NCBI GenBank assembly: GCA_964574295.1 | Contig: CAZNLY010000011.1 | Coordinates: forward strand, 1,142 to 65,141 | Origin: an uncultured Gemmatimonadaceae bacterium | GTDB taxonomy: Bacteria; Gemmatimonadota; Gemmatimonadetes; Gemmatimonadales; GWC2-71-9 | Direction: 5' to 3' | Length of the DNA: 64,000 nt | In this document: positions 21,051 through 39,474 of the stretch, piece by piece | How the letters are laid out: every line of letters begins with the position of its first letter | Numbering within the stretch: position 1 is the stretch's first letter | Program-made: the position numbers and the translations under genes | The notes under the pieces: generated by a model | Told to the model about the DNA's origin: nothing | Seen by the model: only the letters and a program-made list of their open reading frames with translations | Databases searched by the model: none

Positions 21051-21063
21051 CGGCGCCCGGCCA

Positions 21064-21069: not shown

Positions 21070-21258
21070 GAGCGCGATCCCCAATGGCAGGAAGACGCAA
21101 TACCCCAGCACCAGCAACACGGCGGCCAGGCTCGTGCTGCCGGAGGCCAGAAGCAAATAGCCCGCCGCCAGCGAGACCAGGCCACACGCCAGCAGGGCCA
21201 AGTTGCGGGGCGCCAGCGGGATAGGACGTCCGGAGGTCGCCTTGGAGGATTCGGGCAT
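21067..21258 (-). CDS. Small two-TM membrane protein (DUF3098-like)
   Basis: 63 aa, RNLALLACGLVSLAAGYLLL...SLAAVLLVLGYCVFLPLGI resembles the short DUF3098 pattern. Confidence 0.55.
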   Translation of the reverse strand: MPESSKATSGRPIPLAPRNLALLACGLVSLAAGYLLLASGSTSLAAVLLVLGYCVFLPLGIAL

Positions 21259-21269
21259 AGTCGGGAAGG

Positions 21270-22151
21270 CTAGCGGGAAGAAGGTTGGTGGTCAAGCACG
21301 TTTTCGTCCCCTTCCTCCGGTGCAATGTCCCATCCCTCGTCGAGCGCCGCCCGGCGGGGGCGGTCCCGGCGGCGGCGGGCCACATACGCGAGCGCCACCG
21401 CCGCCGCGATCACCAGCCAGATTCCGGTTCCGACCGTCCAGGTGGCCAGGCCAAACCGGAGCCGGACCGACCGGCGCCACGACTCGTCGAACCGGTCCAC
21501 GGAGAGTCCCGTGGTGGCGAGCACGGCGGCATCGAACGGGACGCCGGCCGCGAGCTGGCCCAGGAGCGGATCGAGCGTGCCTGTGGGGTTCCGTCTCCCG
21601 AGCTCGAGCACGGCCGTGGCGGCCAGCGCGTATCCGGCGTCGGCGGAGAGGCCGCTGCCGCGCAGGTGGGCATCGAGCTCCCCGAGCCCCGGCGTCTCCC
21701 CGCGGGCCACCGCCAGGTTGACCGCCAGCCGGTCGAAGACGTCCCACTGCCCGCTCGCCACCGTGGCGTACCCCTCGTCGAACCAGAGCGGCACCCGCTG
21801 CCGGACCGCGTCGTGCAGCGCCAGGTGGGCGAGCTCGTGGCGGAGGGTCCCGAGGACGTCACCGCCGTCCGCCCGGAGCACGATGGTGCGCCCCCCGGGG
21901 AACGCGGCCCCGGCACTCCATCCCGGCAGGCGGCCCCGGGTGAACTCCCGGAACTGGGCCGAATCGGCGGCCACGAACAGCCGGAGGGAACCGAGGTCGC
22001 GGCGCCCGATGCCAAGCCAGGTGGCGGGCTGGTCGGCGGCGTCCGCCAGCGCCGTGGCCAGGGCCTCCTGGTCGGGCCACGCCACCACCGTCACCCGCCC
22101 GACCGTGGTGACGCTGGGCTGCCCCTGCACGAGGAGGACGGCGAGGATCAG
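21270..22151 (-). CDS. Peptidase MA-like zinc metallopeptidase domain protein with C-terminal TM
   Basis: LRHELAH (HExxH) followed by VPLWFDEGYA; hydrophobic N-terminus; C-terminal TM and basic tail; start uncertain (CTG 22151). Confidence 0.75.
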   Translation of the reverse strand: MILAVLLVQGQPSVTTVGRVTVVAWPDQEALATALADAADQPATWLGIGRRDLGSLRLFVAADSAQFREFTRGRLPGWSAGAAFPGGRTIVLRADGGDVLGTLRHELAHLALHDAVRQRVPLWFDEGYATVASGQWDVFDRLAVNLAVARGETPGLGELDAHLRGSGLSADAGYALAATAVLELGRRNPTGTLDPLLGQLAAGVPFDAAVLATTGLSVDRFDESWRRSVRLRFGLATWTVGTGIWLVIAAAVALAYVARRRRDRPRRAALDEGWDIAPEEGDENVLDHQPSSR

Positions 22152-23020
22152 GCCGGCGAGTGTCGCGGGATCTCGCCCCCCGCCGCCGCGAGGTCCAGCA
22201 GCTCGCGGCAGCGCTTGCCCCAGGGATTGAACTTGTTGGCCTTGTGGCCGTCGGTCCACGCCTGGCGGGCCTCCTCGGGCCGTCCGGCAAACCAGAGGGC
22301 CCGGCCCAGCTCGTAGTACGCCTCGATCAGGTTCGGGCCAAGGGCCAGCGCCTTGCGGAAGAAGGTCTCCGCGTCCTCGTACATCTCGCGCTCCTGGTAG
22401 ACCAGCCCGAGGTAGTAGTGGGCATACAGGGTGGCCTTGCGGTCGTTGTCGAGCCGGATGGCGCGCGAGAGATGCTCGATCGCCTCGCCGAAGATCCGCT
22501 TCTTGAGGCAGATGTACCCGACATTGATCCGCGCCAGGGCGTTGGCCGGCTCCTTCATGAGGACGCGGGAGAAGGTGCCGAGCGCCTCATCGTACTGCTC
22601 CGCCAGCATCTGGGCCCACCCGAGCAGGGAGAGCGCCTGCGGGTCGTCCGGCGCGAGGGCCAGCGCCTTGCCGAGGGCCTGGATGGCCCCGGGAAAGTCG
22701 CCGAGCGAGATGAGGCTCCACCCCTTCTCGATGAAGGTGGAGGCGCCGAGGTGGTCGGCCTGGAGCACGGGGCGGGCGCCGGTGAACTGGGGGGCGCCCC
22801 CGCTCTCGACTTCCGCGGCGAGCTGCTTGTACTGCTCGACCAGGGTGCGGACCTGCTCCTTGAGGGCGGCGAGCTCGCCCAGCAGGCCGTCCACCCTCTT
22901 GAAGTAGCCGATGATGTCGCGCTTGAGGGCCAGGCGGTCGGGGCCGGACGGCGCGGCGGCCAGCCGCCCGGCGAGGGTGGCGTACTCGTCCCGCAGGGAG
23001 CGAAGCGGATCGGCGGTCAC
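22148..23020 (-). CDS. TPR protein with N-terminal coiled coil
   Basis: N-terminal heptad-like helix, then about 5 TPRs (ALARINVGYICLKK, AHYYLGLVY, AYYELGRAL); GTGA overlap with cheW. Confidence 0.8.
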   Translation of the reverse strand: MTADPLRSLRDEYATLAGRLAAAPSGPDRLALKRDIIGYFKRVDGLLGELAALKEQVRTLVEQYKQLAAEVESGGAPQFTGARPVLQADHLGASTFIEKGWSLISLGDFPGAIQALGKALALAPDDPQALSLLGWAQMLAEQYDEALGTFSRVLMKEPANALARINVGYICLKKRIFGEAIEHLSRAIRLDNDRKATLYAHYYLGLVYQEREMYEDAETFFRKALALGPNLIEAYYELGRALWFAGRPEEARQAWTDGHKANKFNPWGKRCRELLDLAAAGGEIPRHSPA

Positions 23021-23478
23021 GCGCCGGCGGCCGTGAGTTGCAGGCGCTCCTCGCTGCTGAAGAGCCGCCCCGCCTGGAGCAGGATGACCGTGCGTTCCGC
23101 CAGGGTGAGCACGCCGAGGATGTACTTGGCGGCCAGGCCGCGGATCATCGGCGGCGGTGCGGCCACCTTGCGGCTGTCGGTGCGCAGCACCTCCCGCACC
23201 GCGTCCACGATCATCCCCACCCGCTGGCCGTCCAGGGTCACGATCATCACCCGCGTCTCTTCGCGGTGAGGCGCCGGGGCGCCGAGGCGGGTCCGGAGGT
23301 CCACGACCGGGACCACGCCGTCGCCGTACGGCAGCACCCCCTCCAGGAATTCGGGTGCGCTCGGCACCGGGGCCGGCGCCTGGTAGCGGAGGATGCGGTC
23401 GACCTGGGATATCTCCAGGGCGAACTCCTGGCCGCCGGCCGCGAAGATGACCACCTGGATGTCGTCGCCTGTCGTCAT
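23017..23478 (-). CDS. cheW: Chemotaxis coupling protein CheW
   Basis: VVIFAAGGQEFALEISQVDRIL, PVVDLRTRLG, RVGMIVDAVREV; ATG 23478. Confidence 0.9.
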   Translation of the reverse strand: MTTGDDIQVVIFAAGGQEFALEISQVDRILRYQAPAPVPSAPEFLEGVLPYGDGVVPVVDLRTRLGAPAPHREETRVMIVTLDGQRVGMIVDAVREVLRTDSRKVAAPPPMIRGLAAKYILGVLTLAERTVILLQAGRLFSSEERLQLTAAGA

Positions 23479-23912
23479 GTGTCGCCCTTCCCGCCCAGGA
23501 GCCGCGCCCCCAGGGCCTTGAGATCGAGTATCGGCACCACCGCCCCGTCTCGGCGCGTCACCCCCAGCGCCCACGGGAGCGACTCGCCCGCCGGCACCGG
23601 CATGACCGGCTCCGCGAGCACCGCCTCCGCCTCCTCGACCTCGAGGCAGACTCGCTGGCGCCCGGCGCGCGCGAGCACGCCGATCTCCCCCCGAGGCCGG
23701 TCGCCGGCCGCGCCCCAGAGGATGTCGGAGAGGTTGACCACGGGGACGAGCCGCTCGCGAACCGCCACCACGCCCCGGAGCGCCGGTTCCGTGGCGGGGA
23801 CAGGAAATGTCGCCGCGAGGTCCACGACCTCGAGCACCTCCGCCACCTCGAGCCCGACCGGACGCCCGCCGGCGCGGACGAGGAGGTAGCGGCAGGGTTC
23901 GGTTCCGCTCAT
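23475..23912 (-). CDS. cheW: CheW-like protein (divergent)
   Basis: [35 protein letters not shown]. Confidence 0.8.
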
Positions 23913-24955
23913 GCGGCGTTCATCCGGGTCAGGAGGGCGGTCACCCGCTCCCCAACCTCCCCGACCGGGAGGACGAAATCGGCGCCACCCGCCGCCTGGG
24001 CGGCATTCGGCATCCCGAAGATCGTCGAGCTCTCCCGGTCCTGGGCAATCCCCTTGCCACCCGCGTCGTGGAGGACGCGCAGACCCTCGGCGCCATCGCG
24101 GCCGAGGCCGGTGAGCACCACGCCGATGGCGCGCTTGCCGAAGACGGAGGCGACGGAGCGGAAGAGGGGGTCGGCGGCGGGGCGCACGCCCCAGAGGGGA
24201 GGGCCCTGATCGAGGGCGAGGGCGATGCCGTCGGCGCCGTCCGTCACCCGCATATGATAATCCCCCGGCGCGATGTAGGCCGTGTCCGACACGAGCGGCG
24301 TGCCGTCCTCCCCCTCGACCACCGCGAGGTCGCTCTGGGCCGCGAGCCGCTCGGCAAGGCTCCGGGTGAAGCGCGGCGGCATGTGCTGGACCACGACCAC
24401 CGCGGCGTGCTGCCCACGGGCGATGCGTGGAATGACCTCCGCCAGGGCCCGCGGGCCCCCGGTCGACGCCGCGATCGCGACGCAGAACCGGGCCCGCCCC
24501 GGCAAGGCGAAGGCGCCGGCGGGGAGGTCGGGCCGGCGGGGGCGGGCCAGCACCGGGAGCCGGTGGATGTCGGCGGCGCGCGCCGCGCGGAGCGCGGCCA
24601 GCACCCGCTGGGCAAACCGGTCGCGCCCCTCCCCTTCCCGTTCCGCCTCCTTCGCCACCAGCTCCACCGCCCCGAGCTCCAGCGCGCGGATGGCTCCGGC
24701 GGTGCCCGGTCCGGCGTAGGAGGACACCACCACCACCGGGCGCGGCGCTTCCGACATCAGGTACCCGATGGCCGCCAGTCCATCCAGCTCCGGCATCTCG
24801 AGGTCCATCGTCACGAGGTCAGGCTGGTACTCGTGCACCTTGCGCAGGGCATCGAGCCCGTGCCGGGCGGTGGCCACCACGCGGAACTCGCCGGATCCGT
24901 CGATGATCTCCGTCAGCAGGCGTCGGAAGAGCGCGCTGTCGTCGGCCACCACCAC
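23909..24955 (-). CDS. cheB: Chemotaxis methylesterase CheB (REC + esterase)
   Basis: REC (ADDS...TMDLEMP); esterase triad motifs ASTGGP, QHMP, GLGRDG; start GTG 24955 or CTG 24964. Confidence 0.95.
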
Positions 24956-24965
24956 CGTCGGCAGG

Positions 24966-25454
24966 CTAGAGATGGGTCACCCCCCGCCGCACGGTGGACA
25001 CCTCGATCCGCCCGTCGTCCACAAAGAGCCGGATGGTCCGACCGTAGTCGCCGCCGACGGCGCTGCCGACCAGCGGGATGTTGTGGTGGCTGAGCGCGGC
25101 GCGGGTGGCGACCAGGTTGCGTTCACCCATCTGGACGGTGCCGGCCGGTTGCAGGTTGGTGAACATCGAGGCCCCGCCCGCGAGGCGGGCGGTGATGCGG
25201 GACTGCCGCGCGCCCCGCGCCGTCATTTCCTGGAGGAGGAGCGGGACGGCGGTCTGGGGGAACTTGCCCGGCGCGGGATCCCGCCGACTCAGGGCGGGAG
25301 ACGGAAGGAGGATGTGGGCCAGCCCGCCCACCTTGGCCTCCGGGTCGTGCAGCACCACCGCCACGCAGCTCCCAAGGCCGATCGTGAGGAGGATGTCTCC
25401 CGCCCCACCCGCCCGGTACTCCGCCACCCGGACCAGGATCTCGCGCTCCCTCAT
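24966..25454 (-). CDS. cheD: Chemoreceptor glutamine deamidase CheD
   Basis: [36 protein letters not shown]. Confidence 0.95.
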
Positions 25455-26275
25455 GCGGCCCGCCGGAAGATGCGCTCGCGCGCGTCGACGAGCGTCAGCG
25501 CGTCGCGCGCCGGCCCGAGCAGGGTCTCCACCTTCCCGAGCACCAGGATCCCGTCGGGCCGCAGCGCGGCGGCAAACGCGGCGAAGAGCCGCTCCTGCGT
25601 GGCGCGGTCGAAGTAGATCACGACGTTGCGGCAGAGGATGAGGTCATAGGCGTCGGTCGGCGCGGCCTCGCGCACCAGGTCGAACCGGCGGACCTGCACC
25701 AGCCGGCGAACCCCCTCGCGCACCCGCCACCCCTCCCCGACCCGCTCGCAATATCGCTCGGTAATCCACGCCGGCGCCTCCAGGAAGGACGCCTGGGGAT
25801 AGACGCCCGACTCCGCCCGCTCGAGGCTCTCCCGGTCGATGTCGGTGGCGTCAATCCGGGGCCGGTCGCCCCAGGCGGCGTGCCCCGACTCGGCGGCCAC
25901 CTCGGCACAGAGCATCGCGAGGGTGTAGGGCTCCTCGCCCGAGGAGCACCCGGCGCTCCAGGCAGTCAACCGACCCTGCCGGGCGGCGAGGAGGGCCGGC
26001 AGCAGGTCCGCCCGAAGGCGATCCCACGTCTCGGGATTCCGGTAGAAGCGGGTGACGTTGATGGTGAGCGCATCCTTGAGCTTTTCCCATTCCTCCGGCC
26101 GCCGGTCGAGTACCGCCAGGTAGTCGGCGTAGGTGTGGACGCCGCAGGCCCGCATCCGGACCAGCAGCCGCCGCCGCAGGCACTTGTCCTTGTAGGCGTC
26201 GAGGGTGAGCCCCGCCTCGCGGGAGACGCGGCGCGTCAGGGCCCGGAACCCGTCGTCGTCCTCGAGGCGGGTCAT
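25451..26275 (-). CDS. cheR: Chemotaxis methyltransferase CheR
   Basis: LTINVTRFYRN, SAGCSSGEEPY, ATDID, ILCRNVVIYFD; ATG 26275. Confidence 0.96.
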   Translation of the reverse strand: MTRLEDDDGFRALTRRVSREAGLTLDAYKDKCLRRRLLVRMRACGVHTYADYLAVLDRRPEEWEKLKDALTINVTRFYRNPETWDRLRADLLPALLAARQGRLTAWSAGCSSGEEPYTLAMLCAEVAAESGHAAWGDRPRIDATDIDRESLERAESGVYPQASFLEAPAWITERYCERVGEGWRVREGVRRLVQVRRFDLVREAAPTDAYDLILCRNVVIYFDRATQERLFAAFAAALRPDGILVLGKVETLLGPARDALTLVDARERIFRRAA

Positions 26276-27891
26276 GCCGGAACGTCCAGGATCTCGAGGT
26301 TCGATCGCGCCAGCTGGTGCGCCGGATTGAGCTCCGCCGCGCGCCGCCAGCACTCGCGCGCCCGGTCGCGGTCCCTGCGCCGGAAGGCCAGGTTGCCGAG
26401 CTTGAAGTAGAGGTCGTCGCCGAGCTCGGGCGCGAGCTTCGCGGCCCGGTCGTACGCGTCCTGGGCTTCGTCGAATCGGCCCGCGCGATAGTGGAGGTCG
26501 CCGAGGTTCTTCGACAGCTGCGGGAGACTCGGTTCCTCGGCGAGGGCGGCCCGCAGCACCTGCTCCGCCTCGGCGAGCTCGCCCGAGGCCTCCAGGAAGA
26601 CCGCCAGGTTGTTCCGGAGGACGGGGTGCGCGGGCCAGGCGGCGACACCCTCCCGCGCCAGCGTCACGGCGCGGACCGGGTCGTCGTCCACGGCGGCCGC
26701 CAGTCCGGCGGCCCAGTACCAGAGCGGCGGCACGGGCCGCGTGCCGAGCAGCTCACGCGCGCGCGCCAGGCGCCCCTCGGCCACCTCGGCATCGTCGCGC
26801 TTGAGGGCGATGATGCCCCAGAGGAGCATCGTGCGCGCGTCGTCGCGGGCCCGCGAGGCCGCCTCCGCGGCGGCCGCCTCCGCCTCGCCGAGGCGCCCGA
26901 GGCGCTCGAGCGCCAGCGCCAGGTTGTGGAGCGTCGCCCCCTTGGGCCCGCCCTGCTCGGCCGATGCCTGCAGCGCCTCGACCGCCTCGGCCCAGCGCGC
27001 CTGCCGCAGGGCGATCAACCCGAGGTAGAACGGCGCGTTGCCCTCGCTGGGGCGGAGCTCGGCCACGCGACGGAACTCCCGTTCCGCCTCGTCGAACATG
27101 CCGGTCTTGTAGAAGGCGACGCCGAGATTGCGGTGCTCCTCGACCCGGGCGTCGTTGACCCGCTCCGACTGCTGCGTGGCGGAGGTGCCGACGCGCCGGA
27201 CGAATCCGGCGCTGAGCAGGCCGTAGATGGCCTTCCCCACCTCGAACTCGACGAGCCCCGAGGCGTCCACCACATCCTGCACGTCGTTGCGCCCATTGAG
27301 GAGTGGGAGCACCACCTCCTGCTCGTCGCTGAGGCGGACCCCGGCGTCCCTCAGCCGCGCCTGGTCGGCCTCGAAGACCAGGTCGAGGGTCGGGATCTTC
27401 TTGGCGATCACCGCCCATTCGTCCACCCGGCGGGCGCCCTCGAGCAGGAGCGACTCGGGGCTGATCGACACGAGGAAGTCCTCGCGCTCCGGCCGCACCC
27501 CCGCCTCGAAGTTGAAGGTGCCGCTGCTCCAGGTGAAGAGGAAATACACCGCCTCCTCCACCTGAACCCGGATGTGCTCCTCGAGCTCGGCCCGCGTGAT
27601 GTGCCCGAGCTCCACGAGGATCTCGCCGAGCTTGCGATCGCGGTCCGCGGCCTGCCGGTCGATGGCGGCGCGCAGCTGCACGTCGGTCAGGCGCCCGTTC
27701 CGGACGAGGAGATCCCCCAGCCGGTCCCGCCGGTTCACGATCGACGCGTAGATGATCCGGCCGTCGTCGAAGTAGGTGTAGCCGAAGTTCTGGCGGTCGG
27801 CCACCGCCAGGCAGCCGGTCTTCCGCCCGAGCGCCAGCAGCTGGATGACGTCGGGAAGGCTGGCCTCCTTGAGGCTGCCCTTGATGGCCAT
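26272..27891 (-). CDS. DUF4388 (PatA-N) protein with MshEN-like insert and C-terminal TPRs
   Basis: IKGSLKEASLPDVIQLLALGRKTG...FTWSSGTFNF...LLLEGARRVDEW; RLGDLL/KLGEIL tandem motif; TPRs (HRNLGVAFYKTG); ATG 27891. Confidence 0.85.
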   Translation of the reverse strand: MAIKGSLKEASLPDVIQLLALGRKTGCLAVADRQNFGYTYFDDGRIIYASIVNRRDRLGDLLVRNGRLTDVQLRAAIDRQAADRDRKLGEILVELGHITRAELEEHIRVQVEEAVYFLFTWSSGTFNFEAGVRPEREDFLVSISPESLLLEGARRVDEWAVIAKKIPTLDLVFEADQARLRDAGVRLSDEQEVVLPLLNGRNDVQDVVDASGLVEFEVGKAIYGLLSAGFVRRVGTSATQQSERVNDARVEEHRNLGVAFYKTGMFDEAEREFRRVAELRPSEGNAPFYLGLIALRQARWAEAVEALQASAEQGGPKGATLHNLALALERLGRLGEAEAAAAEAASRARDDARTMLLWGIIALKRDDAEVAEGRLARARELLGTRPVPPLWYWAAGLAAAVDDDPVRAVTLAREGVAAWPAHPVLRNNLAVFLEASGELAEAEQVLRAALAEEPSLPQLSKNLGDLHYRAGRFDEAQDAYDRAAKLAPELGDDLYFKLGNLAFRRRDRDRARECWRRAAELNPAHQLARSNLEILDVPA

Positions 27892-30493: not shown

Positions 30494-30495
30494 CC

Positions 30496-31307: not shown

Positions 31308-32185
31308 GCGGGGCGCTCCAGCCACCGGCGCGCGGCCTCGGACGCGCGCTCGGCATGCCGCGCCAGTCGCCCGATCGGCACGCTGCTGTCGCGCACCAGG
31401 AGGAGGAGGGACTCCCCCGAGGGGGCCGAGAGGTAGAGGTTCGCGTCGGCCGTCTCGGCCGCCACGCTCGTCCACTCGCCGAGCGCCAGGAGCCGCGCCG
31501 CCCGGGCGGCGTCCCGGTAGACCCCCGCCAGGTGTGCGGCCACCGCGTCGCCGACGTCGGCGCCATCGGGCGCGCGCAGCCCTCCCCCCAGCCGGAGGCC
31601 GCTCGCGTCGAGCAGCAGCAGCCCGTCGTGCGCGCCCTCGAGGCCGGCAAAGACGTCCTCACCGGCGGCCGACGCGCCGGGCATCGGCCGGGGCGGCAGC
31701 GACGGCGCCGCCGCCGGGACGGCAGGCGCGGTGGCCGGGGCCTCGGGAGCCACGGGGGCCGGCGTCTCGGGCCCTGCCGTCCGGAGCGCCTCACGCACGC
31801 GCAGGGCGGCCGCCGCCACGCCCTCGGCATCGGGGTCGGCAGCCAGCGCGGCCTCCAGGTGTTCGAGCGCGAGCGGCAGCTCGCCGGCCACGAAGTACAG
31901 GAAGCCGATTCCCTTGTGCGCGCCCGCGTGCCGTTCGTCGAGCCGGAGCGCGATGTCCCACTCGTCGAAGGCGCGCTCGTGATCGCCACGGTCGCCGAGG
32001 ACCCGCGCCAGGAGGTCGTGCGCGTCGGCCAGGTCCGGATACCGGGAGAGTCCGGCAAGCGCCACCTTCTCGGCGGCCTCCAGCTGGCCGCGCCGGCGGA
32101 GCGCCTCGCCGAGCGGGAGGAAGACCAGGCTCGACGGATCGGCGGCGAGCTGCGCGGTCAGCACCCGGATGTCTTCAGAGCTCAC
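31304..32185 (-). CDS. TPR-Roadblock/LC7 fusion protein
   Basis: N-terminal TPRs (SLVFLPLGEALRRRG, AHKGIGFLYF), Pro/Ala linker, C-terminal roadblock (DGLLLLDASGLRLGG...PIGRLAR); GTG 32185. Confidence 0.78.
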   Translation of the reverse strand: MSSEDIRVLTAQLAADPSSLVFLPLGEALRRRGQLEAAEKVALAGLSRYPDLADAHDLLARVLGDRGDHERAFDEWDIALRLDERHAGAHKGIGFLYFVAGELPLALEHLEAALAADPDAEGVAAAALRVREALRTAGPETPAPVAPEAPATAPAVPAAAPSLPPRPMPGASAAGEDVFAGLEGAHDGLLLLDASGLRLGGGLRAPDGADVGDAVAAHLAGVYRDAARAARLLALGEWTSVAAETADANLYLSAPSGESLLLLVRDSSVPIGRLARHAERASEAARRWLERPA

Positions 32186-33329
32186 GCCGCCCTCCGAGTG
32201 CGTCCTGCAGGGTCTCCACCGCGGACCGCCAACGCGCCACCGTCGCTTCCCGCCCGCGCTCGGTGTCGGGCAGGGGACTCGTCCCCTGCCAGCGCGCCCA
32301 GGTCTCCATCGCCGCGCCGTAGCGGCCCCGGCCCACCTCGGCGAGCCCGAGGAGGCGGAGCGCCGCCGCGGCGGCGGGATCGCAGGCGAGGGCCTGCGAC
32401 AGGCGCATGGCGGCCTCGTCGTAGCGCGCCTCCGCCAGGAGCACGCGCCCGAGGAGCAGGTGGGCGCGGGACTCCTCGGGAAAGGCCAGCACCGCTTCCT
32501 CGGCCGTGAAGCGCGCGCGGGCCACCTCGCCGAGCAGCAGGGCCTCCTCCGTGGAGGAGACCAGCCCGCCCAGGTCGTGCACCGGCGCCTCATCGCGCCC
32601 GGCGGCCGCCGGTTCCGCCAGCACGATAATACCGGCGGTGGCGAGGCCGAAGAGGGTGCGCGCGACGTCGAAATCCGATCGCCCGAGCGCGGCCGCCAGG
32701 GATCGGACGTCGGTGGCGCCGTCGATCCCCGCCAGCACCTCCCACTCGAAGGGGAGGAGGTCGAGCGGCCCGCCCTCCCCCTCCGGCGCGCCCGTGAGGC
32801 GCGCCACCACGCCGAGGTGCGGCACCTTCGGCTCGATTCGCGACCATTCGTCGATCCGGCGCGCCGCCTCCATCAAGAGCGACTCGGTCGGAATCCGCAC
32901 GGTCGCCTCGCCGAGCGACGGCGGGAGGGGGCCGTCCTCGAAGGAGAAGTACCCCTCGGACCAGCTCATCAGCTCGAAGATGACCTCCTCCACCTGGGCA
33001 CGGATCTGCCGCTCGAGCTCCTTGCGCGGCAGGACTCCCATTTCGACCAGGATGTCGCCGAGGCGGTGCCCGGGCCGGGTCCGCTGAATCCCGGCCGCCC
33101 GTGCCACGTCATCCTCCCGCACCTTGCCGGCCCGCACGAGCAGCGCCCCCAGCGGGTGCGGGTTGCTCCGGATCTCGGCGGCGACCACGGCCCCGCCCTC
33201 GAAGTAGACGACGCCGGCGTTCTGGCGCAGCTCGGAAGTGACCCGCAGGACCCCGGTCTTCCGCCCCAGGTCGAGGAGCTGGAAGACGTCGTGGATCTGC
33301 AGTTCCTTGAGCGGGCCCTCGATCGGCAC
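32175..33329 (-). CDS. DUF4388 (PatA-N) protein with MshEN-like insert and C-terminal TPRs
   Basis: IEGPLKELQIHDVFQLLDLGRKTG...MSWSEGYFSF...LLMEAARRIDEW; PLGALL/RLGDIL tandem motif; paralog of 26272-27891. Confidence 0.85.
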   Translation of the reverse strand: MPIEGPLKELQIHDVFQLLDLGRKTGVLRVTSELRQNAGVVYFEGGAVVAAEIRSNPHPLGALLVRAGKVREDDVARAAGIQRTRPGHRLGDILVEMGVLPRKELERQIRAQVEEVIFELMSWSEGYFSFEDGPLPPSLGEATVRIPTESLLMEAARRIDEWSRIEPKVPHLGVVARLTGAPEGEGGPLDLLPFEWEVLAGIDGATDVRSLAAALGRSDFDVARTLFGLATAGIIVLAEPAAAGRDEAPVHDLGGLVSSTEEALLLGEVARARFTAEEAVLAFPEESRAHLLLGRVLLAEARYDEAAMRLSQALACDPAAAAALRLLGLAEVGRGRYGAAMETWARWQGTSPLPDTERGREATVARWRSAVETLQDALGGRREL

Positions 33330-33332
33330 GGG

Positions 33333-36023
33333 CTACCCCGCCGAACCGGCAAAGATGTGGACCAACTCGCGAGTGGACCGAAGCTGGGTGCGCGCCGCGG
33401 CGGCCAGCGCGCTCCCGGGATCGGCGCGCACCACCGTCTCCCACTGGGTGGTGGCCTCCTGGAACCGCTTGAGGCGCACCAGGGCGGAGCCGTAGGCGAG
33501 CCGCGCGGCGGCCGACTCGGGGTCGAAGCGCAGGACCCGCTGGAAGGCCTCGATCGCCTGGTCGGGGCGACCGTCCTCGAGCAGGAGCTCGCCCAGGAGG
33601 GTGAGCGCCTGGAGGTCCCAGGGATCGGCGCCGAGGAGCGCGATCAGCGGCGCCATCGCGGCCTTCGGCGTGTCCACCCGGCGGAGCAGCTGCGCGAGCG
33701 CGCGCGCCGCCTCGGAGTAGGTCGGGAGCAGGTCGAGCGCCCGCTGGTAGGCCAGGCGCGCGCCGGTCCAGTTCTGCCGCTCCTCCTCCAGCGACCCCAG
33801 CTCCAGCCACACCTGCACCAGCCCGGCGTCGAGCTGCAGCGCCGCCTGGTACGCGTCCAGCGCCGCCTCGCGCTCCCCGAGCCGGCGCGAAACGCCGGCC
33901 TGGAGCTGCAGGAGGTCGGGCCGGCCCGGCGCGCGCGCCTGCGCGTGGCGGAGCGCGTCGAGCGCACGGACCGGATCGCCCGTGGCGAGCCGGACCCGGG
34001 CACAGGCGACGAGCGCCTCGACGTCGGCCGGCGCGAGCTGGGCCAGCGCCTCGGCCCCGGCCACCGCCTCCCCTGGCCGCCCGAGCGCCAGGAGCGAGCG
34101 GACCTCCCCGAGGAGCGCCGCCACGTCGGCGGAATCGGCCGCGCGCGCCTCGCGGTAGCGCTCCAGCGCCTCGCCGTGGAGGCCGCGCTTCCCGAAGATG
34201 TCGCCGAGGAGAACGGCCACCCGGGCGCGCGACGCGCCGCGCGCGACCGCGCGCGTCAGTTCGGCGGAGGCCAGCTCGAGCAATCCCTTGCTGATGTAGT
34301 CCCGGGCGAGGTGGAGCGCGGCCTCCTCGGCGGCGGGCGCGGCGGGAGCCGGGGCGGCGGGGGCCAGCCCCTCGAAGATCCCCTCGAGCAGCGTGGGGTC
34401 GAAGGCGAACGCGTCGCCGAGCGAGGCGGCGGTGACGTCCGCGCTGATCTCGGGGACGACCGAGATGAGGGGGTCCTCGTACTGGAGGTCGATGGCCAGC
34501 TGGAACTTCTGCTGGATGTAGTACGGCTCGAGCTCGAGGGCGCGCTTCGTGGCGCGGAGCGCGCCGTCGAAGTCGCCGAGTTGGCTGAGGGTGAAGCTGA
34601 GGTTGTAGTGGGCCGAGGCGTAGGTCGGCGCCGCGTCCACGGCGCGGGCGAAGGCGTTCCGGGCGTCGGCGTAGCGCTGGAGTTCCATGAGCACCAGCCC
34701 AATGCCGTTCCAGGCGGGGGCGCTGCCGGGGTGGTCGGCCAGGGTGGCGCGGTAGGTCTCGAGCGCCTGCTGGAAGCGCCGGAGCTGGAAGAGCAGCAGC
34801 CCGAGGTTGAGCCGGGGAGCCGCGAGGTCCCGCCCGACCTGGATCGCGGCGCGAAACGCCGCCTCGGCCTCGCCGGTGCCGGGGTCGTGGGCCAGGAGCA
34901 CCCCGAGGTTGTTCCAGGCGAGGGCATACTCGCCGTCCAGGGAGATGGCCCGCTCGTAGGAATCGCGCGCCGCGTCGCGTCGGCCGGCCTGGTGCAGGCA
35001 GACGCCCCGCTCGTTCCAGACCTTCGGGGAGTCGGCGTGCTCCTCGACGAGCACGTCGTACAACTCGAGGGCGCCGGCCAGGTTGCGACGGAGGAGGTGT
35101 ACCTCGGCCATCGCCTGGAGGGTGAGCCGGCGGTCCTCCCCGTGGTCGAGGGCCAGGCGGTACTCGCGGAGGGCCTCCGCGTAGTACCCCTTTTGCCGGA
35201 AGGCGAGCCCGAGGTTGAAGTGGGCGAGCGTGCTCCCTTCGGTGGGGACGGGGCGCATCGCGTCGGCCAGCGACTGCCGGGTCGGGCCGGCGCCCTCCTC
35301 GTCGGCGGCGATGGCCAGGTTGGCCTGGGCCCGGCCGAGGGTCGGGTTGAGCGCGATCGCGCGCTTGGTCGCCGCGCGCGCGTCGTCGTGCAGGCCCATG
35401 TCGCCCAGCACGAAGGCGAGGAGGTAATGGGCGTCGGCGTAGTCGGGGTTGCGCTGGACCGCCTGCCGGAGGGTCTCGAGGGCCGCCTCGTTCAGGCCGC
35501 GGTGATACAGCGCCTCCCCGTAGTAGAACAGGGCGACGGGGCTGTCGGGATCGCGCTCGGCCGCGCGGCGGAACCATTCCTCCGCGGCCTCGACACGCCC
35601 GCGCGCCTTCTCCGCCAGTCCCAGCTGGAGCAGCGTCGGGATGTCATCGGGATGCCAGGCGAGGAGGGCCTCGAACTCGGCCACCGCCTCGTCCACGTGG
35701 GCGAGCGCGGCGTAGGCGCGGGCCAGCTCCCAGCGGGCCTCGCGGTCGCCGGCATCGCGCCGCAGCCGCTCGCGCAGCTCGGCCACGCGCCGGTCGTAGT
35801 AGCCGCTGGCCCGGTAGGTGATCTCGAGATTGGCCTGCGCCACCTGCATGCGCGGGTCCAGCTCGAGGGCGCGGGAGAACTCCGCGATGGCCTCGGGGAT
35901 GAGGCCTTTCTGGTAATACAGGACGCCGAGGTTGTTGTGGGCGCCGGCATCCGACGGGTCGATCCGGCGGGCGAACGACCGAAGGACCGCGAGGTCCCGC
36001 TCGGGCAGCGCCGGACCGCCCAT
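33333..36023 (-). CDS. Large cytoplasmic multi-TPR protein (896 aa)
   Basis: Many TPR signatures (AHNNLGVLY, AHFNLGLAF, VWNERGVCL, AWNNLGVLL, AHYNLSFTL); no signal peptide. Confidence 0.88.
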   Translation of the reverse strand: MGGPALPERDLAVLRSFARRIDPSDAGAHNNLGVLYYQKGLIPEAIAEFSRALELDPRMQVAQANLEITYRASGYYDRRVAELRERLRRDAGDREARWELARAYAALAHVDEAVAEFEALLAWHPDDIPTLLQLGLAEKARGRVEAAEEWFRRAAERDPDSPVALFYYGEALYHRGLNEAALETLRQAVQRNPDYADAHYLLAFVLGDMGLHDDARAATKRAIALNPTLGRAQANLAIAADEEGAGPTRQSLADAMRPVPTEGSTLAHFNLGLAFRQKGYYAEALREYRLALDHGEDRRLTLQAMAEVHLLRRNLAGALELYDVLVEEHADSPKVWNERGVCLHQAGRRDAARDSYERAISLDGEYALAWNNLGVLLAHDPGTGEAEAAFRAAIQVGRDLAAPRLNLGLLLFQLRRFQQALETYRATLADHPGSAPAWNGIGLVLMELQRYADARNAFARAVDAAPTYASAHYNLSFTLSQLGDFDGALRATKRALELEPYYIQQKFQLAIDLQYEDPLISVVPEISADVTAASLGDAFAFDPTLLEGIFEGLAPAAPAPAAPAAEEAALHLARDYISKGLLELASAELTRAVARGASRARVAVLLGDIFGKRGLHGEALERYREARAADSADVAALLGEVRSLLALGRPGEAVAGAEALAQLAPADVEALVACARVRLATGDPVRALDALRHAQARAPGRPDLLQLQAGVSRRLGEREAALDAYQAALQLDAGLVQVWLELGSLEEERQNWTGARLAYQRALDLLPTYSEAARALAQLLRRVDTPKAAMAPLIALLGADPWDLQALTLLGELLLEDGRPDQAIEAFQRVLRFDPESAAARLAYGSALVRLKRFQEATTQWETVVRADPGSALAAAARTQLRSTRELVHIFAGSAG

Positions 36024-36026
36024 CGC

Positions 36027-36647
36027 TCAGCCGACGCGGATGGCGTCGAAAATGGCCCGCAGCGACGCCAGGTCCGGCAGGAGGAGGAAGTGGCCCCGCA
36101 GGTTGGAGGCCTCGCCCTCGAACCGGAACTCGGACTCCACGCAGAAGACGTAGTCCCGCTCGGACCCGAAGTTGAGGTAGGTCGAGGTCAGCACCGCGGC
36201 GCTGAGGTCCACCGCCAGGCTCGGCACCGAGGGCACCAGCATCATGCCCATGAAGTCGCTCAGCGCCGTCAGGTAGGCGCTGCTCAGGATGTTGCCGACC
36301 TCCTTGATCCCCGACTGCTCCATCGCGCCGAACTCGGTGGTGGTGCCGAGGGGGCGGCGGAGGAGGATGTCGCAGAGGGCGCGGGCCGACGGCTCGGGGA
36401 AGATCAGGAGCGTGCGGCCGGTGAGGTCGCCCATCATGTGCATCAGCACGGCGGCCACCACCTCCTCGGGGTCGCCCAGGACCTCGGGCACCTCCTCGAG
36501 CGGCGTCACCGACACCTCGGGGACGCTGATCATGATCTTCTTGTTGATCATGTGGGAGAGCGCCGTGGCGGCGTGCCCCGCCCCGATGTTCGCCACCTCC
36601 TTGAGGGCGTCGAACTGGAGCTCCTTGAGATCGCGCACGTCTTCCAT
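36027..36647 (-). CDS. cheC: CheY-P phosphatase CheC
   Basis: Two E-x2-N motifs: DALKEVANIGAGHAATALS and SGIKEVGNILSSAYLTALS; VPSVP; ATG 36647 after AGGGAG. Confidence 0.95.
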   Translation of the reverse strand: MEDVRDLKELQFDALKEVANIGAGHAATALSHMINKKIMISVPEVSVTPLEEVPEVLGDPEEVVAAVLMHMMGDLTGRTLLIFPEPSARALCDILLRRPLGTTTEFGAMEQSGIKEVGNILSSAYLTALSDFMGMMLVPSVPSLAVDLSAAVLTSTYLNFGSERDYVFCVESEFRFEGEASNLRGHFLLLPDLASLRAIFDAIRVG

Positions 36648-36657
36648 GGGATTCTCC

Positions 36658-38616
36658 CTAGACGAGGGCCGCAGCATCGAGGATCAGCGCCGGGGTGCCA
36701 TCGGCGAGGATGGTCGCGCCGCTGAAGAGCGGCGGGGTCCCCCGGGGCGCATCGAACGGCTCCACCACCACTTCCTGCTGTCCCACCAGCGAGTCCACCA
36801 CCACCGCCGACCGGCGGTCTCCCACCTCGAGCACCAGCCCCGGCCGCCGCGGCGGGACCGGCCCCGCGGCGGCGCCCAGGAGGGCGCGCAGGTGCACCGT
36901 CGGGAGCACCCGGTCGCGCAGGACGATCGCCTCCCGGCCCTTCACCTCGGTGGCCGGCTGCGCGTCGAACTCCACCGTCTCGGCCACGTAGGAGAGCGGC
37001 AGCAGGTAGCGCTCCGTCCCCACGCGGGCGGTGAGCACCCGCAGGATGGCCAGCGTGAGCGGCAGCCGCAGCGTGAAGGTGGTCCCCGCGCCGGGCGCGG
37101 TGGCGATCTCCACGGAGCCGCCGTGCGCGCGCACCCGCGTGAGGACGACGTCGATCCCCACGCCACGCCCGGACACGCTGCTGACCCGCTCGGCGGTGCT
37201 GAACCCCGGCCGCCCGAGGACCTTGAGCAGGAGGTCGTCGGACAGCTGCTCCACCTCGGGCCCCACCGCCCCCTCCCGCCTGGCCTTGGCCAGGATGGCG
37301 GCACGATCGATCCCGCGGCCGTCGTCCTCGATCCGGATGGCCACGCTGCTCCGCTCGCGCGCCGCCGAGAGGACCAGCCGGCCCTCCGCCGGCTTGCCGC
37401 GGCGGGTGCGCTCGTCCGGGGTCTCGAGGCCGTGGTCCACCGCGTTCCGGAGGAGGTGCAGGAGTGGATCCCCGAGCTCGTCGAGGATGGCGCGGTCCAG
37501 CTCGATTCCCTCGCCCTGCATCTCGAACCGGATCTGCTTGCCGAGCTGGCGAGCCAGGTCGCGCACCGCGCGCGGGAAGCGGTCGAACACCTGCCAGACC
37601 GGGGTCATCCGCGCCTCGATGACTTCCGTCTGCAGGTCGCTCACCAGCCGGCTGATGCGGGCGCCGAGCGCCTCCAGTTCCCCCCCCGGCTCTTGCTGCG
37701 CCAACTCGATGAGCCGGTTGCGCGCCACCACGAGCTCGCCCACCTGGCTCATCAGCGCATCCAGCCGCCGCCGATCGACGCGGACCTGCCCGGTGCGCGC
37801 CGCCGGGGCAGCCGCCGCCGCCGGGAGCTCCGCCGTCGGAATCCGCCATTCCGCGGTCTGCACGGTGTCGGCGTCCACCGCCACGCTGGCGACGTCGCCG
37901 GCCGCCTCGATCCACGCCACCACCTTCGACTCGGGCGCCTCGGCGTCGAGCCGGAAGGTGAACCGCCCGTCGAACCCCGGCGCGTCAAACGCCGTGGCCG
38001 GCGGCATGACGCCCGACACCTTGCCCAGCTGTTCCGCCCGGCGCAGCGCGAGATGCGCCCGCGCGCCGATCAGCGGGGCGTCCCGCCGGATCTCGACGCG
38101 AACCACGCGGCCCGCCTCGGCGGCGAAGCCCGACTCCGCCGCCACCGCGACCGCCGGCACGACGGGTGCCGGAGCGGCTCCCCGCTTGGAGGCTCCCCGC
38201 TTCTTGCCCCTGGCGAGTGGGGCCTCCGGCGCCGCGGGGGCCACGGCCGCCCGCTCGAGCGCCCCGGGCAGGTCGCCGGCATCGAAGCCGGCATCCGCGC
38301 CCGCCGCGGCCTCATCCACCCCGCGTTCCAGTGCGTCGACCGACTTGAGGAGCAGGTCCACCGCGGCCGCGCCGCCCGGGGCGCGCCCGGCCCGGATGGC
38401 GTCGAGGAGGTGTTCCGTGCGATGCGCGAGGTCGGCCAGGCGGGCGTAGCCCATCGTGGCCGCCATCCCCTTCAGCGAATGGATCGCGCGGAAGAGGCCG
38501 TCGACCGCGCCGGTGGAAGCCGGTTCCCGCTCCCACTCGAGGAGGAGCCGGTTGCACGTGGTGAGGTGTTCACGGCTCTCGGCGAGGAAGAGCGCGGCGT
38601 ACTTGTTCAGGTCCAT
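36658..38616 (-). CDS. cheA: Chemotaxis histidine kinase CheA (HPT, P2, dimerisation, HATPase, CheW domains)
   Basis: FRAIHSLKGMA, VRVDRRRLD, HLLRNAVDHG, DDGRGID, PGFSTAE..SGRGVG; P2-like ARAHLALRRAEQLG. Confidence 0.97.
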   Translation of the reverse strand: MDLNKYAALFLAESREHLTTCNRLLLEWEREPASTGAVDGLFRAIHSLKGMAATMGYARLADLAHRTEHLLDAIRAGRAPGGAAAVDLLLKSVDALERGVDEAAAGADAGFDAGDLPGALERAAVAPAAPEAPLARGKKRGASKRGAAPAPVVPAVAVAAESGFAAEAGRVVRVEIRRDAPLIGARAHLALRRAEQLGKVSGVMPPATAFDAPGFDGRFTFRLDAEAPESKVVAWIEAAGDVASVAVDADTVQTAEWRIPTAELPAAAAAPAARTGQVRVDRRRLDALMSQVGELVVARNRLIELAQQEPGGELEALGARISRLVSDLQTEVIEARMTPVWQVFDRFPRAVRDLARQLGKQIRFEMQGEGIELDRAILDELGDPLLHLLRNAVDHGLETPDERTRRGKPAEGRLVLSAARERSSVAIRIEDDGRGIDRAAILAKARREGAVGPEVEQLSDDLLLKVLGRPGFSTAERVSSVSGRGVGIDVVLTRVRAHGGSVEIATAPGAGTTFTLRLPLTLAILRVLTARVGTERYLLPLSYVAETVEFDAQPATEVKGREAIVLRDRVLPTVHLRALLGAAAGPVPPRRPGLVLEVGDRRSAVVVDSLVGQQEVVVEPFDAPRGTPPLFSGATILADGTPALILDAAALV

Positions 38617-38619
38617 GCG

Positions 38620-38982
38620 TCAGCCGAGGACGCGCTGCACCGCCTCGAGGACCCGGCTCGGCTGGAACGGCTTGACGACGAAGTCCTTGGCGCCGGCCTG
38701 GATGGCCTCGACCACCAGGGCCTGCTGGCCCATGGCGCTGCACATCAGGATCTTGGCCTCCGGCGACTCGCGACAGATCTCGCGCACCGCGTCGATCCCG
38801 CCCATGTCGGGCATCACGATGTCCATCGTGACGAGGTCGGGCTTGAGCTGGCGGTACTTCTCCACCGCCTGCACGCCCGTCTCCGCCTCGCCCACCACCT
38901 CGAATCCCGCCTGGGTGAGGATGTCGCTGATCATGGTCCGCATGAAGATGGCATCGTCGCACACCAGGACCGTGTGGCTCAC
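38620..38982 (-). CDS. cheY: Chemotaxis response regulator CheY
   Basis: CDDAIFMR, PDLVTMDIVMP, CSAMGQQ, GAKDFVVKPF (Bacillus/Thermotoga-like). Confidence 0.96.
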   Translation of the reverse strand: MSHTVLVCDDAIFMRTMISDILTQAGFEVVGEAETGVQAVEKYRQLKPDLVTMDIVMPDMGGIDAVREICRESPEAKILMCSAMGQQALVVEAIQAGAKDFVVKPFQPSRVLEAVQRVLG

Positions 38983-39000
38983 AAGTCGTTCTCCGGGCGT

Positions 39001-39474
39001 CTAGGTGGTCCGTGATTGGGAGCGGCCGGCCCCGCCGGACCCGCTGAGCAACGGCGACAGCAGGGCCTCGGTGTCGAGCAGGACGAAGTGCTGGCCGTCG
39101 CGGCGGCCGACCGCCTTGACCAGGCGGCGATCCACGCCGGGGAGCGCCTCACCCGCCTCGAGCTGCGCTGCGGGAAGCTCGAAGAGGTCGTCCACGCGGC
39201 CGACCGCGAGACCGAGCCGCCGCGTGCCGACGTCCACCACGAGGAGGGCGCCCTCGTGCTCCGGCAACGGCGCGCGGCCGAGGAGCCGGTGCCCGTCGAC
39301 CACCGTCAGGAGCGTGCCGCGGACGTTGACCAGACCGAGGACGACTTCGGGGGCGCCGGGGATCCGGGTCGTGGGGAGGGGTGCCAGGATTTCCCGGGCA
39401 CGGCCGGCGGGGATGCCGCAGGCCAGATCACCCACCTGGAACACCACGACGCGCACCGCCTGGGAGTCAGCCAT
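39001..39474 (-). CDS. cheW: Chemotaxis coupling protein CheW
   Basis: TRIPGAPEVVLGLVNVRGTLLTVVD, LGLAVGRVDD; ATG 39474. Confidence 0.9.
   Translation of the reverse strand: MADSQAVRVVVFQVGDLACGIPAGRAREILAPLPTTRIPGAPEVVLGLVNVRGTLLTVVDGHRLLGRAPLPEHEGALLVVDVGTRRLGLAVGRVDDLFELPAAQLEAGEALPGVDRRLVKAVGRRDGQHFVLLDTEALLSPLLSGSGGAGRSQSRTT

Follow-up and report, generated by a model that had tools for sequence, protein, structure and literature searches.

A locus of 20 genes in an uncultured Gemmatimonadaceae bacterium, which combines a chemosensory (che) pathway, an MglA-type GTPase with Roadblock proteins and an ATPase carrying two DnaA-type AAA+ modules, appears to be built around that ATPase. The locus lies on the minus strand of a 64,000-nt stretch of contig CAZNLY010000011.1 (positions 1,142 to 65,141; assembly GCA_964574295.1), hereafter the window. 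Relatives of the locus were found so far in Gemmatimonadota and in one related low-GC lineage. Among them the constant element is the ATPase with a PATAN (DUF4388) protein and/or a large TPR protein as partner, joined within Gemmatimonadota by a peptidase, whereas the che and mgl genes vary from locus to locus. Therefore, che and mgl are read as regulatory layers round an ATPase/adaptor/peptidase core, and the AAA+ protein seems central to the system, not an addition to Mgl. The whole model, in which the ATPase core, a che layer and an mgl layer would together govern a polar envelope process, is put forward tentatively, at a little below an even chance.

Coding on the minus strand is unbroken over 21270-39474, as followed by codon-position GC profiles (the window is of ~73% GC), and resolves into 19 co-oriented genes with intergenic distances of −11 to +18 nt, their starts having been chosen from frame transitions and nearby start codons. 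Pfam domains were assigned to each of these genes in the order CheW, CheY, CheA, CheC, 896-aa all-TPR protein, PATAN-TPR, TPR-Roadblock, Roadblock, MglB-like protein, MglA-like GTPase, two-Bac_DnaA protein, PATAN-TPR, CheR, CheD, CheB, CheW, CheW, TPR and Peptidase_MA_2 (G01 to G19; Table 1), which bears out the gene list, with gaps of at most 18 nt, that the original prediction had read from the letters and open reading frames (ORFs). Absent from that list was a 20th gene, at 21067-21258, that fills the 369-nt 'gap' after the peptidase gene, and the locus is thus one of 20 genes, ending at ~21067.

The window proteins were compared by tblastn with loci fetched through the ATPase. The full order recurs in >40 loci at 35-88% protein identity and, with its flanks (rluD on one side, a TPR gene and mraW on the other), is found in Gemmatimonadales, Gemmatimonadaceae, a Gemmatimonas-labelled metagenome-assembled genome (MAG) and some Longimicrobiales. 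Minimum identities in the full-order loci are 34-45% for MglB, CheA and the ATPase, with CheY staying at 82-99% and MglA at 59-96%. Since the same order is held in so many loci at such identities, the arrangement is far beyond chance; the synteny between the che genes and the genes enclosed by cheC and cheR, without which the predicted joint system would have lost its ground, is kept across deep divergence in the phylum. In the Gemmatimonas-type locus (L027; GAU_1409 context), no MglB or Roadblock gene was detectable.

Smaller forms of the locus were also found: (i) the reduced form (L090 and L091), which has lost cheR, cheD, cheB and two cheW genes and kept everything else, and whose MglA (L090:4912-5457 and L091:9388-9942) has lost DRTLFFDF, reads AVPGL or AVPPQ instead of TVPGQ and may be a GTPase-dead paralogue; (ii) the minimal form, ileS-rluD-ATPase-PATAN-TPR-peptidase, seen, as far as the contigs reach, in each of the 80 loci fetched with a second ATPase subgroup (mostly Longimicrobiales-labelled), none of which has che genes or mglA; (iii) the low-GC form (L165, L258 and L259; 45-49% GC; nearest named member 'Candidatus Cloacimonetes bacterium 4572_55'), which reads cheW-cheY-cheA-(ExeA-like AAA)-cheW-cheC-TPR-PATAN-ATPase, differs in its downstream neighbours and harbours no mgl genes, no cheR, cheB or cheD and no peptidase gene. 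Wherever a full-form, reduced or minimal locus extends far enough, the second PATAN-TPR gene (G12) adjoins the ATPase gene; in the window its start overlaps the ATPase stop (ATGA), so that the two are coupled.

The che genes, the mgl genes, G05 to G08 and G18 are jointly absent from the minimal loci. Moreover, the condition of the ATPase goes together with the presence of these layers, as the Walker A and B motifs of its second module are intact in 32 of the 41 che/mgl-linked loci and lost in 77 of 81 minimal ones. Twelve of the 80 minimal loci have a Roadblock gene before the ATPase gene and no MglA (L175:9470-9970; also, for example, L250, L191 and L236), which makes the AAA+ protein a possible target of Roadblock proteins. 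Because such remnants persist (Roadblock without MglA, decayed MglA, decayed second ATPase site), a stepwise loss of che and mgl from a fuller ancestor is suggested. The original prediction had seen an mgl module inserted into, and splitting, an otherwise complete che operon. Its gene content, its synteny and its c-di-GMP motifs hold up; the insertion does not, as the ATPase, the second PATAN-TPR protein and the peptidase persist alone in every minimal locus, and as the low-GC lineage links che to TPR, PATAN and ATPase genes without mgl.

Some neighbours of the ATPase in distant lineages stand apart. A homologue of the 896-aa TPR protein (G05) lies beside the double ATPase even in L165, L258, L259 and L168, the last being a low-GC Gemmatimonadota MAG in which this TPR gene is the only companion, no che or PATAN genes being nearby; two bactofilin genes (L168:3765-4667) lie ~3 kb upstream of the pair. 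Between cheA and cheC, the three low-GC loci encode two additional proteins, an ExeA-like AAA_22 ATPase and a long one with a CheW domain (L165:4035-4853, L258:3743-4561 and L259:4339-5157). The ExeA-like protein was considered as a link to pili and set aside, its best NCBIfam match being a PEP-CTERM-associated ATPase below cutoff, with no evidence of pili.

The ATPase itself (G11) consists of module 1 (residues ~5-235), a disordered linker, a helical middle domain (278-384), module 2 (~395-622) and a conserved C-terminal tail of ~40 residues that is acidic and Trp-rich (REKxVWxWP...RLxEEWR). In a PDB search, module 1 matched DnaA domain III (E=6e-51) and module 2 matched Hda (E=6e-6); the AlphaFold2 (AF2) model matched B. 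subtilis DnaA domain III in Foldseek with a template-modelling (TM) score of 0.95. Walker A and B motifs are found in both modules, as are sensor and box VII-like motifs. The chain begins at the domain-III signature LxPxxRFDxFVVG, and for DnaA domains I, II and IV no Pfam match (Bac_DnaA_C or DnaA_N) was obtained; in the absence of domain IV, the protein should be unable to bind DnaA boxes. Its database name, 'chromosomal replication initiator protein DnaA', is explained by TIGR00362, whose summed score exceeds the cutoff for DnaA. Hda is a single AAA+ domain of ~230 aa with an N-terminal clamp-binding motif. Identity with Hda was rejected for the protein studied here, which has 667 aa and two modules, scores below the cutoffs of the Hda models and has no visible clamp motif; its N-terminal 'QLSPQF' was considered as such a motif and set aside, as DnaA domain III ordinarily begins in this way. 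Whole-protein Foldseek matches to p97/Cdc48 were disregarded, since only 'two AAA modules' were in common and the root-mean-square deviation was >20 Å.

Representatives of the ATPase family extend down to 32% identity, and the named ones are all Gemmatimonadota-labelled save for the Cloacimonetes-labelled lineage; P0133 and P0244 lie on contigs too short for gene context. P0183 was discarded as a relative, being an unrelated DnaA-like protein with domain IV, and a genome scan with the generic alignment A2 returned mainly true DnaA genes, with no relatives of P0190 among the matches listed. On a 4-kb contig of a 'Solirubrobacterales' MAG (L009; JBOGZC010000159.1), the order Roadblock-mglB-mglA-ATPase was seen at ~59% identity, probably through misbinning of the contig and not because actinobacteria have the locus. 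Two giant proteins, unrelated to the locus (P0201, 1990 aa; P0204, 1876 aa), combine an AAA+ domain of DnaA type, at about residue 200, with C-terminal ends that are rich in Glu, Leu and Arg and resemble coiled coils; they may represent another non-replicative use of the DnaA fold.

Both PATAN proteins (G06 and G12) end in TPR repeats, with no receiver domain (Pfam Response_reg) on either, and carry a helical insertion with tandem MshE-type motifs. On the NCBIfam model NF053729 (c-di-GMP_motif; cutoff 38), G12 scores 45.5 bits and G06 scores 37.7 bits, marginally below the cutoff. Residues 53-111 of G12 matched T. thermophilus PilF (6F8L; E=4e-8) and the N-domain of V. cholerae MshE (5HTL; E=4.5e-5), the insertion aligning over R9-Q61 of the latter, and the motifs recur in orthologues of both PATAN proteins. 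The Pfam family T2SSE_N gave no match even on the isolated segment, whereas the NCBIfam and PDB searches did detect the motif. From the NF053729 scores, the 5HTL match and the conservation in orthologues, the label of cyclic di-GMP (c-di-GMP) motif given in the original prediction holds at the level of sequence, and both insertions are predicted c-di-GMP-binding modules. As for the TPR proteins, the profile matches of G05 are to generic TPR only (Pfam and NCBIfam), and G18 is retained in the reduced loci that lack cheR, cheD, cheB and the two cheW genes (L090 and L091) and absent from the minimal ones.

The peptidase (G19) has one C-terminal transmembrane (TM) helix followed by a basic tail, and its gene may start at 22259, which includes LAGLILAVLLV, or at 22130. 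Its orthologues have an N-terminal signal peptide, which in the window only the start at 22259 would include; therefore, G19 probably overlaps G18, and its catalytic domain is most likely periplasmic and the short tail cytoplasmic. The 63-aa product of the 20th gene belongs to no Pfam or NCBIfam family, yet tblastn matches to it lie at the same relative position in 39 loci, both full and minimal (only some of the minimal ones).

The chemosensory part provides CheA with domains P1-P5, CheW, CheY and the adaptation enzymes CheR, CheB, CheC and CheD. The stand-alone CheY is ~70% identical to T. maritima CheY over its full length (1TMY; E=1.3e-50), with residues DD, D54, S82 and K104 all present. 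By CheY, CheC and CheD the pathway would be F1-like, a label that comes from protein similarity. No signalling-domain signature of a methyl-accepting chemotaxis protein (MCP) was found by regular expression in six-frame translations of the whole window, and no MCP was found among the Pfam-scanned ORFs; the che set, described earlier as otherwise complete, is thus incomplete for want of a receptor. Receiver domains were found by Pfam only in CheY and CheB of the locus, CheA having no Response_reg match, and neither a FrzZ-like dual-receiver protein nor a FrzE-type fusion of CheA and receiver is present in the locus. Given a CheA without receiver domain and no FrzZ-like protein, the system is not of the Frz type.

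By its motifs the GTPase (G10) is a bona fide group-1 MglA: it has the P-loop GPGRSGKTT, the Arg-finger region SDRTLFFDF and the TVPGQ and NKQD motifs, and the motifs are retained in 38 of 42 orthologues. The gene 2 nt upstream (G09) encodes a protein that remains below the cutoffs of curated models (Pfam Robl_LC7, 18.6 bits, cutoff 23; NCBIfam MglB equivalog, 29 bits, cutoff 200) and has MglB proteins as its best PDB matches, as befits an adjacent cognate mglB. Its neighbour G08 was rejected as MglC (PDB 7CT3/7CY1), the matches at E up to 1 being 7F8M, MglB and CvnB5, with no MglC-named entry. The C terminus of G07, which also has a Pfam TPR_2 match, gave three independent weak matches, namely Robl_LC7 (20 bits, below cutoff), T. 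thermophilus MglB (1J3W, E=4.7e-4, aligned to residues 190-290) and NCBIfam MglB (20 bits).

Table 1. Features of the locus and its immediate surroundings (positions in the window).
Feature	Positions	Strand	Evidence and remarks
G01 cheW, 157 aa	39001..39474	-	Pfam CheW 94 bits; start overlaps rluD stop by 8 nt
G02 cheY, single-domain response regulator, Thermotoga/Bacillus (F1-like) type	38620..38982	-	Pfam Response_reg 109 bits
G03 cheA, P1-P5	36658..38616	-	Pfam Hpt, P2, H-kinase_dim, HATPase_c, CheW
G04 cheC, CheY-P phosphatase family	36027..36647	-	Pfam CheC 75 bits, two stretches
G05 all-TPR cytoplasmic protein, 896 aa	33333..36023	-	Pfam TPR families; no hydrophobic segment
G06 PATAN with MshE-type helical insertion and short TPR region, 384 aa	32175..33329	-	Pfam DUF4388 117 bits
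Tandem MshE-type motif in G06, residues 59-112	32994..33155	-	Second half RLGDILVEMGVLPRKELERQIRAQ canonical; regular expression, NCBIfam
G07 N-terminal TPR and C-terminal Roadblock/MglB-like domain, 293 aa	31304..32185	-	Alternative start 32164
G08 Roadblock/LC7 protein, 116 aa	30957..31307	-	Pfam Robl_LC7 34 bits; PDB 7F8M E=3e-7, MglB E=8e-5
G09 MglB-like Roadblock protein, 153 aa	30496..30957	-	M. xanthus MglB 6H5B E=1e-8; T. thermophilus MglB
G10 mglA, group-1 MglA GTPase, 200 aa	29891..30493	-	M. xanthus MglA 5YMX, full-length alignment, E=2.6e-71
G11 tandem DnaA-type AAA+ ATPase, 667 aa	27891..29894	-	Pfam Bac_DnaA 303 bits, two stretches
G12 PATAN with MshE-type insertion and long TPR region, 539 aa	26272..27891	-	Pfam DUF4388 129 bits and TPR families
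Tandem MshE-type motif in G12, residues 57-110	27562..27723	-	RLGDLLVRNGRLTDVQLRAAIDRQ, 6-residue spacer, KLGEILVELGHITRAELEEHIRVQ
G13 cheR methyltransferase	25451..26275	-	Pfam CheR 162 bits and CheR_N
G14 cheD	24966..25454	-	Pfam CheD 94 bits
G15 cheB, receiver and methylesterase	23909..24955	-	Pfam CheB_methylest 202 bits and Response_reg
G16 cheW	23475..23912	-	Pfam CheW 66 bits
G17 cheW	23017..23478	-	Pfam CheW 106 bits
G18 TPR protein, 290 aa	22148..23020	-	Pfam TPR families
G19 Peptidase_MA_2 zinc metallopeptidase, HELAH motif	21270..22259	-	Pfam 38 bits; hydropathy
20th gene, 63-aa protein, two predicted TM helices	21067..21258	-	11 nt after peptidase stop; GC content at third codon positions (GC3) 0.83
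tRNA-Val (TAC)	20977-21050	-	ARAGORN; 3′ boundary of locus
TPR protein with signal peptide	19188-20900	-	MRLRLALVAALGSILATQASAQ; between locus and mraW
tRNA-Asp (GTC)	19066-19141	-	With tRNA-Val brackets the secreted TPR gene

The locus is flanked on both sides by a run of housekeeping and division genes, all on the minus strand (window 3-19125 and 39467-52788). Upstream the order is tilS-hpt-ftsH-folP-(TMEM260-like glycosyltransferase)-yggS-ileS-dksA-lspA-rluD, of which the string ileS-dksA-lspA-rluD has the same order in Bacillus. Downstream it is mraW-ftsL-ftsI-murE-murF-mraY-murD-ftsW-murG-murC-ftsQ-ftsA-ftsZ-M23 peptidase-?-ftsY, the labels ftsL, murF and mraY being assigned from position only; as tRNA-Asp overlaps the longest mraW ORF, mraW must start further downstream than 19125. 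The secreted TPR gene that precedes mraW is kept there in full and reduced loci (24-78% identity) and was not seen there in minimal loci; its product could partner the peptidase in the periplasm. A 607-aa ORF with a strong coding signal (749-2572, minus strand; GC3 0.91), situated between ftsY and the gene of the M23 peptidase, has no Pfam match at E up to 1e-5. Elsewhere in the window, a 1026-aa protein (55970-59050, minus strand) matches Pfam GH123_N end to end with 1300 bits, which is unusually high for an N-terminal-domain family.

From their spacing, the 20 genes are probably co-transcribed. As equally tight packing runs on upstream through rluD, lspA, dksA and ileS (gaps of −17 to +9 nt), the start of the operon is not definable by gap size. 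Directly 5′ of the first cheW ATG, inside the 3′ end of rluD, lies a stretch unusually rich in AT for this 73% GC genome (ctatcttcttttcttcaatagag; 39475-39500, minus strand), which could be a translation-initiation or internal promoter element.

In the proposed model, three layers are distinguished: (i) the core, common to the Gemmatimonadota lineages sampled and made up of the tandem AAA+ ATPase, the PATAN-TPR adaptor with MshE-type insertion, the membrane-anchored and supposedly periplasmic MA-clan peptidase and the 63-aa membrane protein; (ii) a receptor-less, F1-like chemosensory pathway (CheA, three CheW, CheY, CheC, CheD, CheR and CheB), which, being receptor-less, would have to be fed by MCPs encoded elsewhere; (iii) MglA, the MglB-like protein, two more Roadblock proteins, the second PATAN-TPR protein and the 896-aa TPR protein as scaffold. 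CheA would phosphorylate the stand-alone CheY, and phosphorylated CheY (CheY-P) would act in trans on the PATAN proteins, CheY and PATAN-TPR together being a split version of the cyanobacterial PATAN-REC; c-di-GMP would bind the MshE-type insertions. The two signals would control an ATP-dependent assembly of the double AAA+ protein on TPR scaffolds, where its acidic, Trp-rich tail perhaps docks on a TPR domain. This assembly would be kept to one cell pole by MglA-GTP and the Roadblock proteins, and the peptidase and the small membrane protein would connect it to the envelope. In a narrower form, the ATPase and the PATAN/MshEN-TPR protein would constitute an unrecognised output device of chemosensory systems, an ATP-dependent assembly gated by CheY-P, c-di-GMP and, in Gemmatimonadales, MglA-GTP, a proposal that we consider possible though rather unlikely.

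The output would be a process in the envelope at the pole; the likeliest candidates are the activity of type IV pili and a remodelling of the cell pole or envelope through the peptidase, and not the flagellar motor. Many of the full-form loci come from the MAG sets SMAG and MFD, which we take from their names to be soil or environmental surveys. In soil Gemmatimonadota MAGs, flagellar genes are rare and type IV pilus genes widespread (PMC10581226). On these two grounds together we infer that a pilus or cell-pole output is to be favoured over a flagellar one.

Several points weigh against this model. Co-transcription is deduced from spacing only, while the upstream housekeeping genes are spaced as tightly. 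Over 20600-40500, no promoter-like site was found by scanning, and the three terminator-like sites equal the expectation from shuffled sequence, so that the scans neither favour nor disfavour the operon structure. No pilus, flagellar or MCP genes were found in the window (annotated ORFs; regular expression for MCP). A flagellar output is a live alternative, because CheY is ~70% identical to that of the flagellar system of T. maritima and because cultured Gemmatimonas strains are flagellated. The contacts between CheY and PATAN proteins and the docking of the ATPase tail on TPR domains are conjecture; loss rather than gain of che and mgl is read from degenerate remnants, not from a phylogeny; and the taxon labels of the MAGs, including 'Cloacimonetes 4572_55', are the depositors' own.

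Alternatively, MglA could stand at the centre, with a Frz-like pathway hard-wired to MglA/MglB, the localisation of MglA-GTP as output, the TPR proteins as SgmX-like effectors and the AAA+ protein as accessory. The canonical MglA beside an MglB-like and two more Roadblock proteins, the large TPR proteins of the locus and the occurrence of mgl and che genes together in most Gemmatimonadales loci are all as expected for such a switch, and in M. xanthus Frz does act on MglA/MglB polarity (PMC3441718). However, the ATPase, the PATAN-TPR protein and the peptidase occur without MglA in all 80 minimal loci, and che is linked to TPR, PATAN and ATPase genes without mgl in L165, L258 and L259. L090 and L091 have a degenerate MglA in a locus that otherwise persists, the Gemmatimonas-type locus (L027; GAU_1409 context) has no detectable MglB or Roadblock gene, and a CheA without receiver, in a locus with no FrzZ-like protein, is not of the Frz type. 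An MglA-centred switch is thus regarded as unlikely.

The position of the locus suggests another reading, that of a device for division or pole maturation, in which envelope remodelling by the core takes place where the cell divides or at the new pole, and Che, c-di-GMP and MglA only set its time and place. The locus stands on the same strand between yggS-ileS-dksA-lspA-rluD and mraW-ftsL-ftsI-mur-ftsW-ftsQAZ, the minimal loci come after yggS-divIVA-PNP-ileS-rluD, the L168 pair has the two bactofilin genes near it, and a periplasmic metallopeptidase is the only enzymatic output in the core. Yet the ileS-lspA-rluD string and that of the division and cell wall (dcw) genes are housekeeping neighbourhoods which many bacteria conserve (for example in the gene order of Firmicutes), and adjacency to them may reflect history only. 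Moreover, the low-GC che-TPR-PATAN-ATPase block sits elsewhere, without the peptidase, and tRNA genes lie between the locus and the dcw cluster. Such a device, which if real may matter for the budding Gemmatimonas, is held to be decidedly unlikely. Mere juxtaposition in a rarely rearranging region of a flagellar F1 operon, an mglBA pair and an unrelated ATPase/PATAN/peptidase operon, with no functional coupling, would agree with CheY, CheC and CheD typical of flagellar F1 systems, with the polar flagella of cultured Gemmatimonas strains and with the tight spacing general in this genome region, but is very improbable, as che genes stand on both sides and the interleaved order is kept down to ~35-45% identity, as che, mgl, G05 to G08 and G18 are absent together from minimal loci with AAA+ module 2 decaying along with them, as che, TPR, PATAN and ATPase genes are linked again among other neighbouring genes, and as flagellar genes are reported to be rare in soil Gemmatimonadota.

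For the layered model, the literature searched offers partial precedents. PATAN genes are sometimes found near mglA and mglB (PMC4316618), PATAN proteins are among the candidates listed in a study of the M. xanthus SgmX/SopA type IV pilus (PMC11580455), and a supplementary table gives the context of G. aurantiaca GAU_1409 as 'PATAN>MglA>-PATAN>'; the gene left unnamed there, after MglA and before the second PATAN, would by position be this ATPase. Apart from this tabulated context, no paper was found that describes the locus, its core across the phylum, the linkage to che, the peptidase or the family of double DnaA-like ATPases, in agreement with the original prediction, which had named the locus as its best candidate for an undescribed system and the AAA+ component as one not known from Mgl systems. 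To our knowledge, indeed, neither the double DnaA-like ATPase nor the MshE-type PATAN nor the peptidase is a known part of an Mgl system.

The locus touches on two open questions, the reach of chemosensory pathways to non-flagellar targets and the wiring of MglA-type GTPases outside Myxococcus. The link from Frz to MglA in M. xanthus was drawn by genetic evidence between unlinked genes (PMC4316618); here, candidate partners are gathered in one conserved locus and form a defined protein set to test. As cultured Gemmatimonas carry a form of the locus (GAU_1409 context), the hypotheses are testable by ordinary genetics. The analysis further exposes a large protein family, with thousands of sequences named DnaA or DnaA/Hda that are nonetheless without DNA-binding domains and are kept across the sampled Gemmatimonadota, and it points to a putative MshE-type c-di-GMP module in the helical insertion that some PATAN domains carry, a statement not found in the literature searched. 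If the ATPase and its PATAN/MshEN-TPR partner are indeed such an output device, an ATPase of the initiator clade would have been repurposed from DNA to protein scaffolding in control of a polar envelope process, and a single encoded machine would for the first time be seen to receive Che signals together with those of a Ras-like GTPase and a second messenger.

Among known systems, the flagellar F1 pathways of T. maritima and B. subtilis share with the locus the CheY (~70% identical to that of T. maritima), CheC, CheD, the five-domain CheA, CheR and CheB; here, however, no MCP or flagellar gene is nearby and the che genes are split by non-che genes. Cyanobacterial Pix/Tax phototaxis systems, of the type IV pilus type, likewise encode PATAN with CheA, CheW and CheY-type genes, and PATAN-REC regulators of che-like systems bind the pilus motor PilB1 in Synechocystis. 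Unlike these PatA-type proteins, PATAN is here fused to TPR and not to a receiver, CheY being separate; moreover, it carries the MshE-type insertion, and no pilus genes are in the window. The MshE-type c-di-GMP motif as defined by Wang et al. (PMC5013675) is recognised in the tandem 24-residue motifs RLGxx(L/V/I)(L/V/I)xxG..L...L..Q, which here are inserted in PATAN instead of standing at the N terminus of a secretion ATPase, with a spacer of 6 residues instead of 5 in G12 and Lys as the first residue of the second motif. Both modules of the ATPase are DnaA domain-III folds with Walker A/B, sensor and box VII-like motifs, as in DnaA and Hda, yet they are joined in one chain without domains I-II and IV, with a helical middle domain and a C-terminal tail added, and in a gene context of signalling, not replication.

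The M. xanthus Frz/MglA system is resembled in its chemosensory pathway, MglB-like protein, extra Roadblock paralogues and large TPR proteins, and the GTPase keeps the equivalents of the Arg finger (R53), Thr78 and Gln82 of M. xanthus MglA. In M. xanthus, however, the frz and mgl genes are unlinked (PMC4316618), whereas che and mgl are interleaved here in one locus that has no FrzZ, FrzCD, RomR or RomX, a CheA without receiver and a Roadblock protein (G08) that matches no MglC-named entry. The actinobacterial conservons CvnA-D join a small MglA-family GTPase, a Roadblock protein and a histidine kinase in a conserved operon (PMC4316618); they differ in having a group-2 rather than group-1 MglA and a membrane sensor kinase rather than CheA, with no PATAN, AAA+ or TPR protein. 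The locus thus brings together known kinds of elements, a chemosensory pathway with a presumably non-canonical output and an MglA module, and an uncharacterised protein family.

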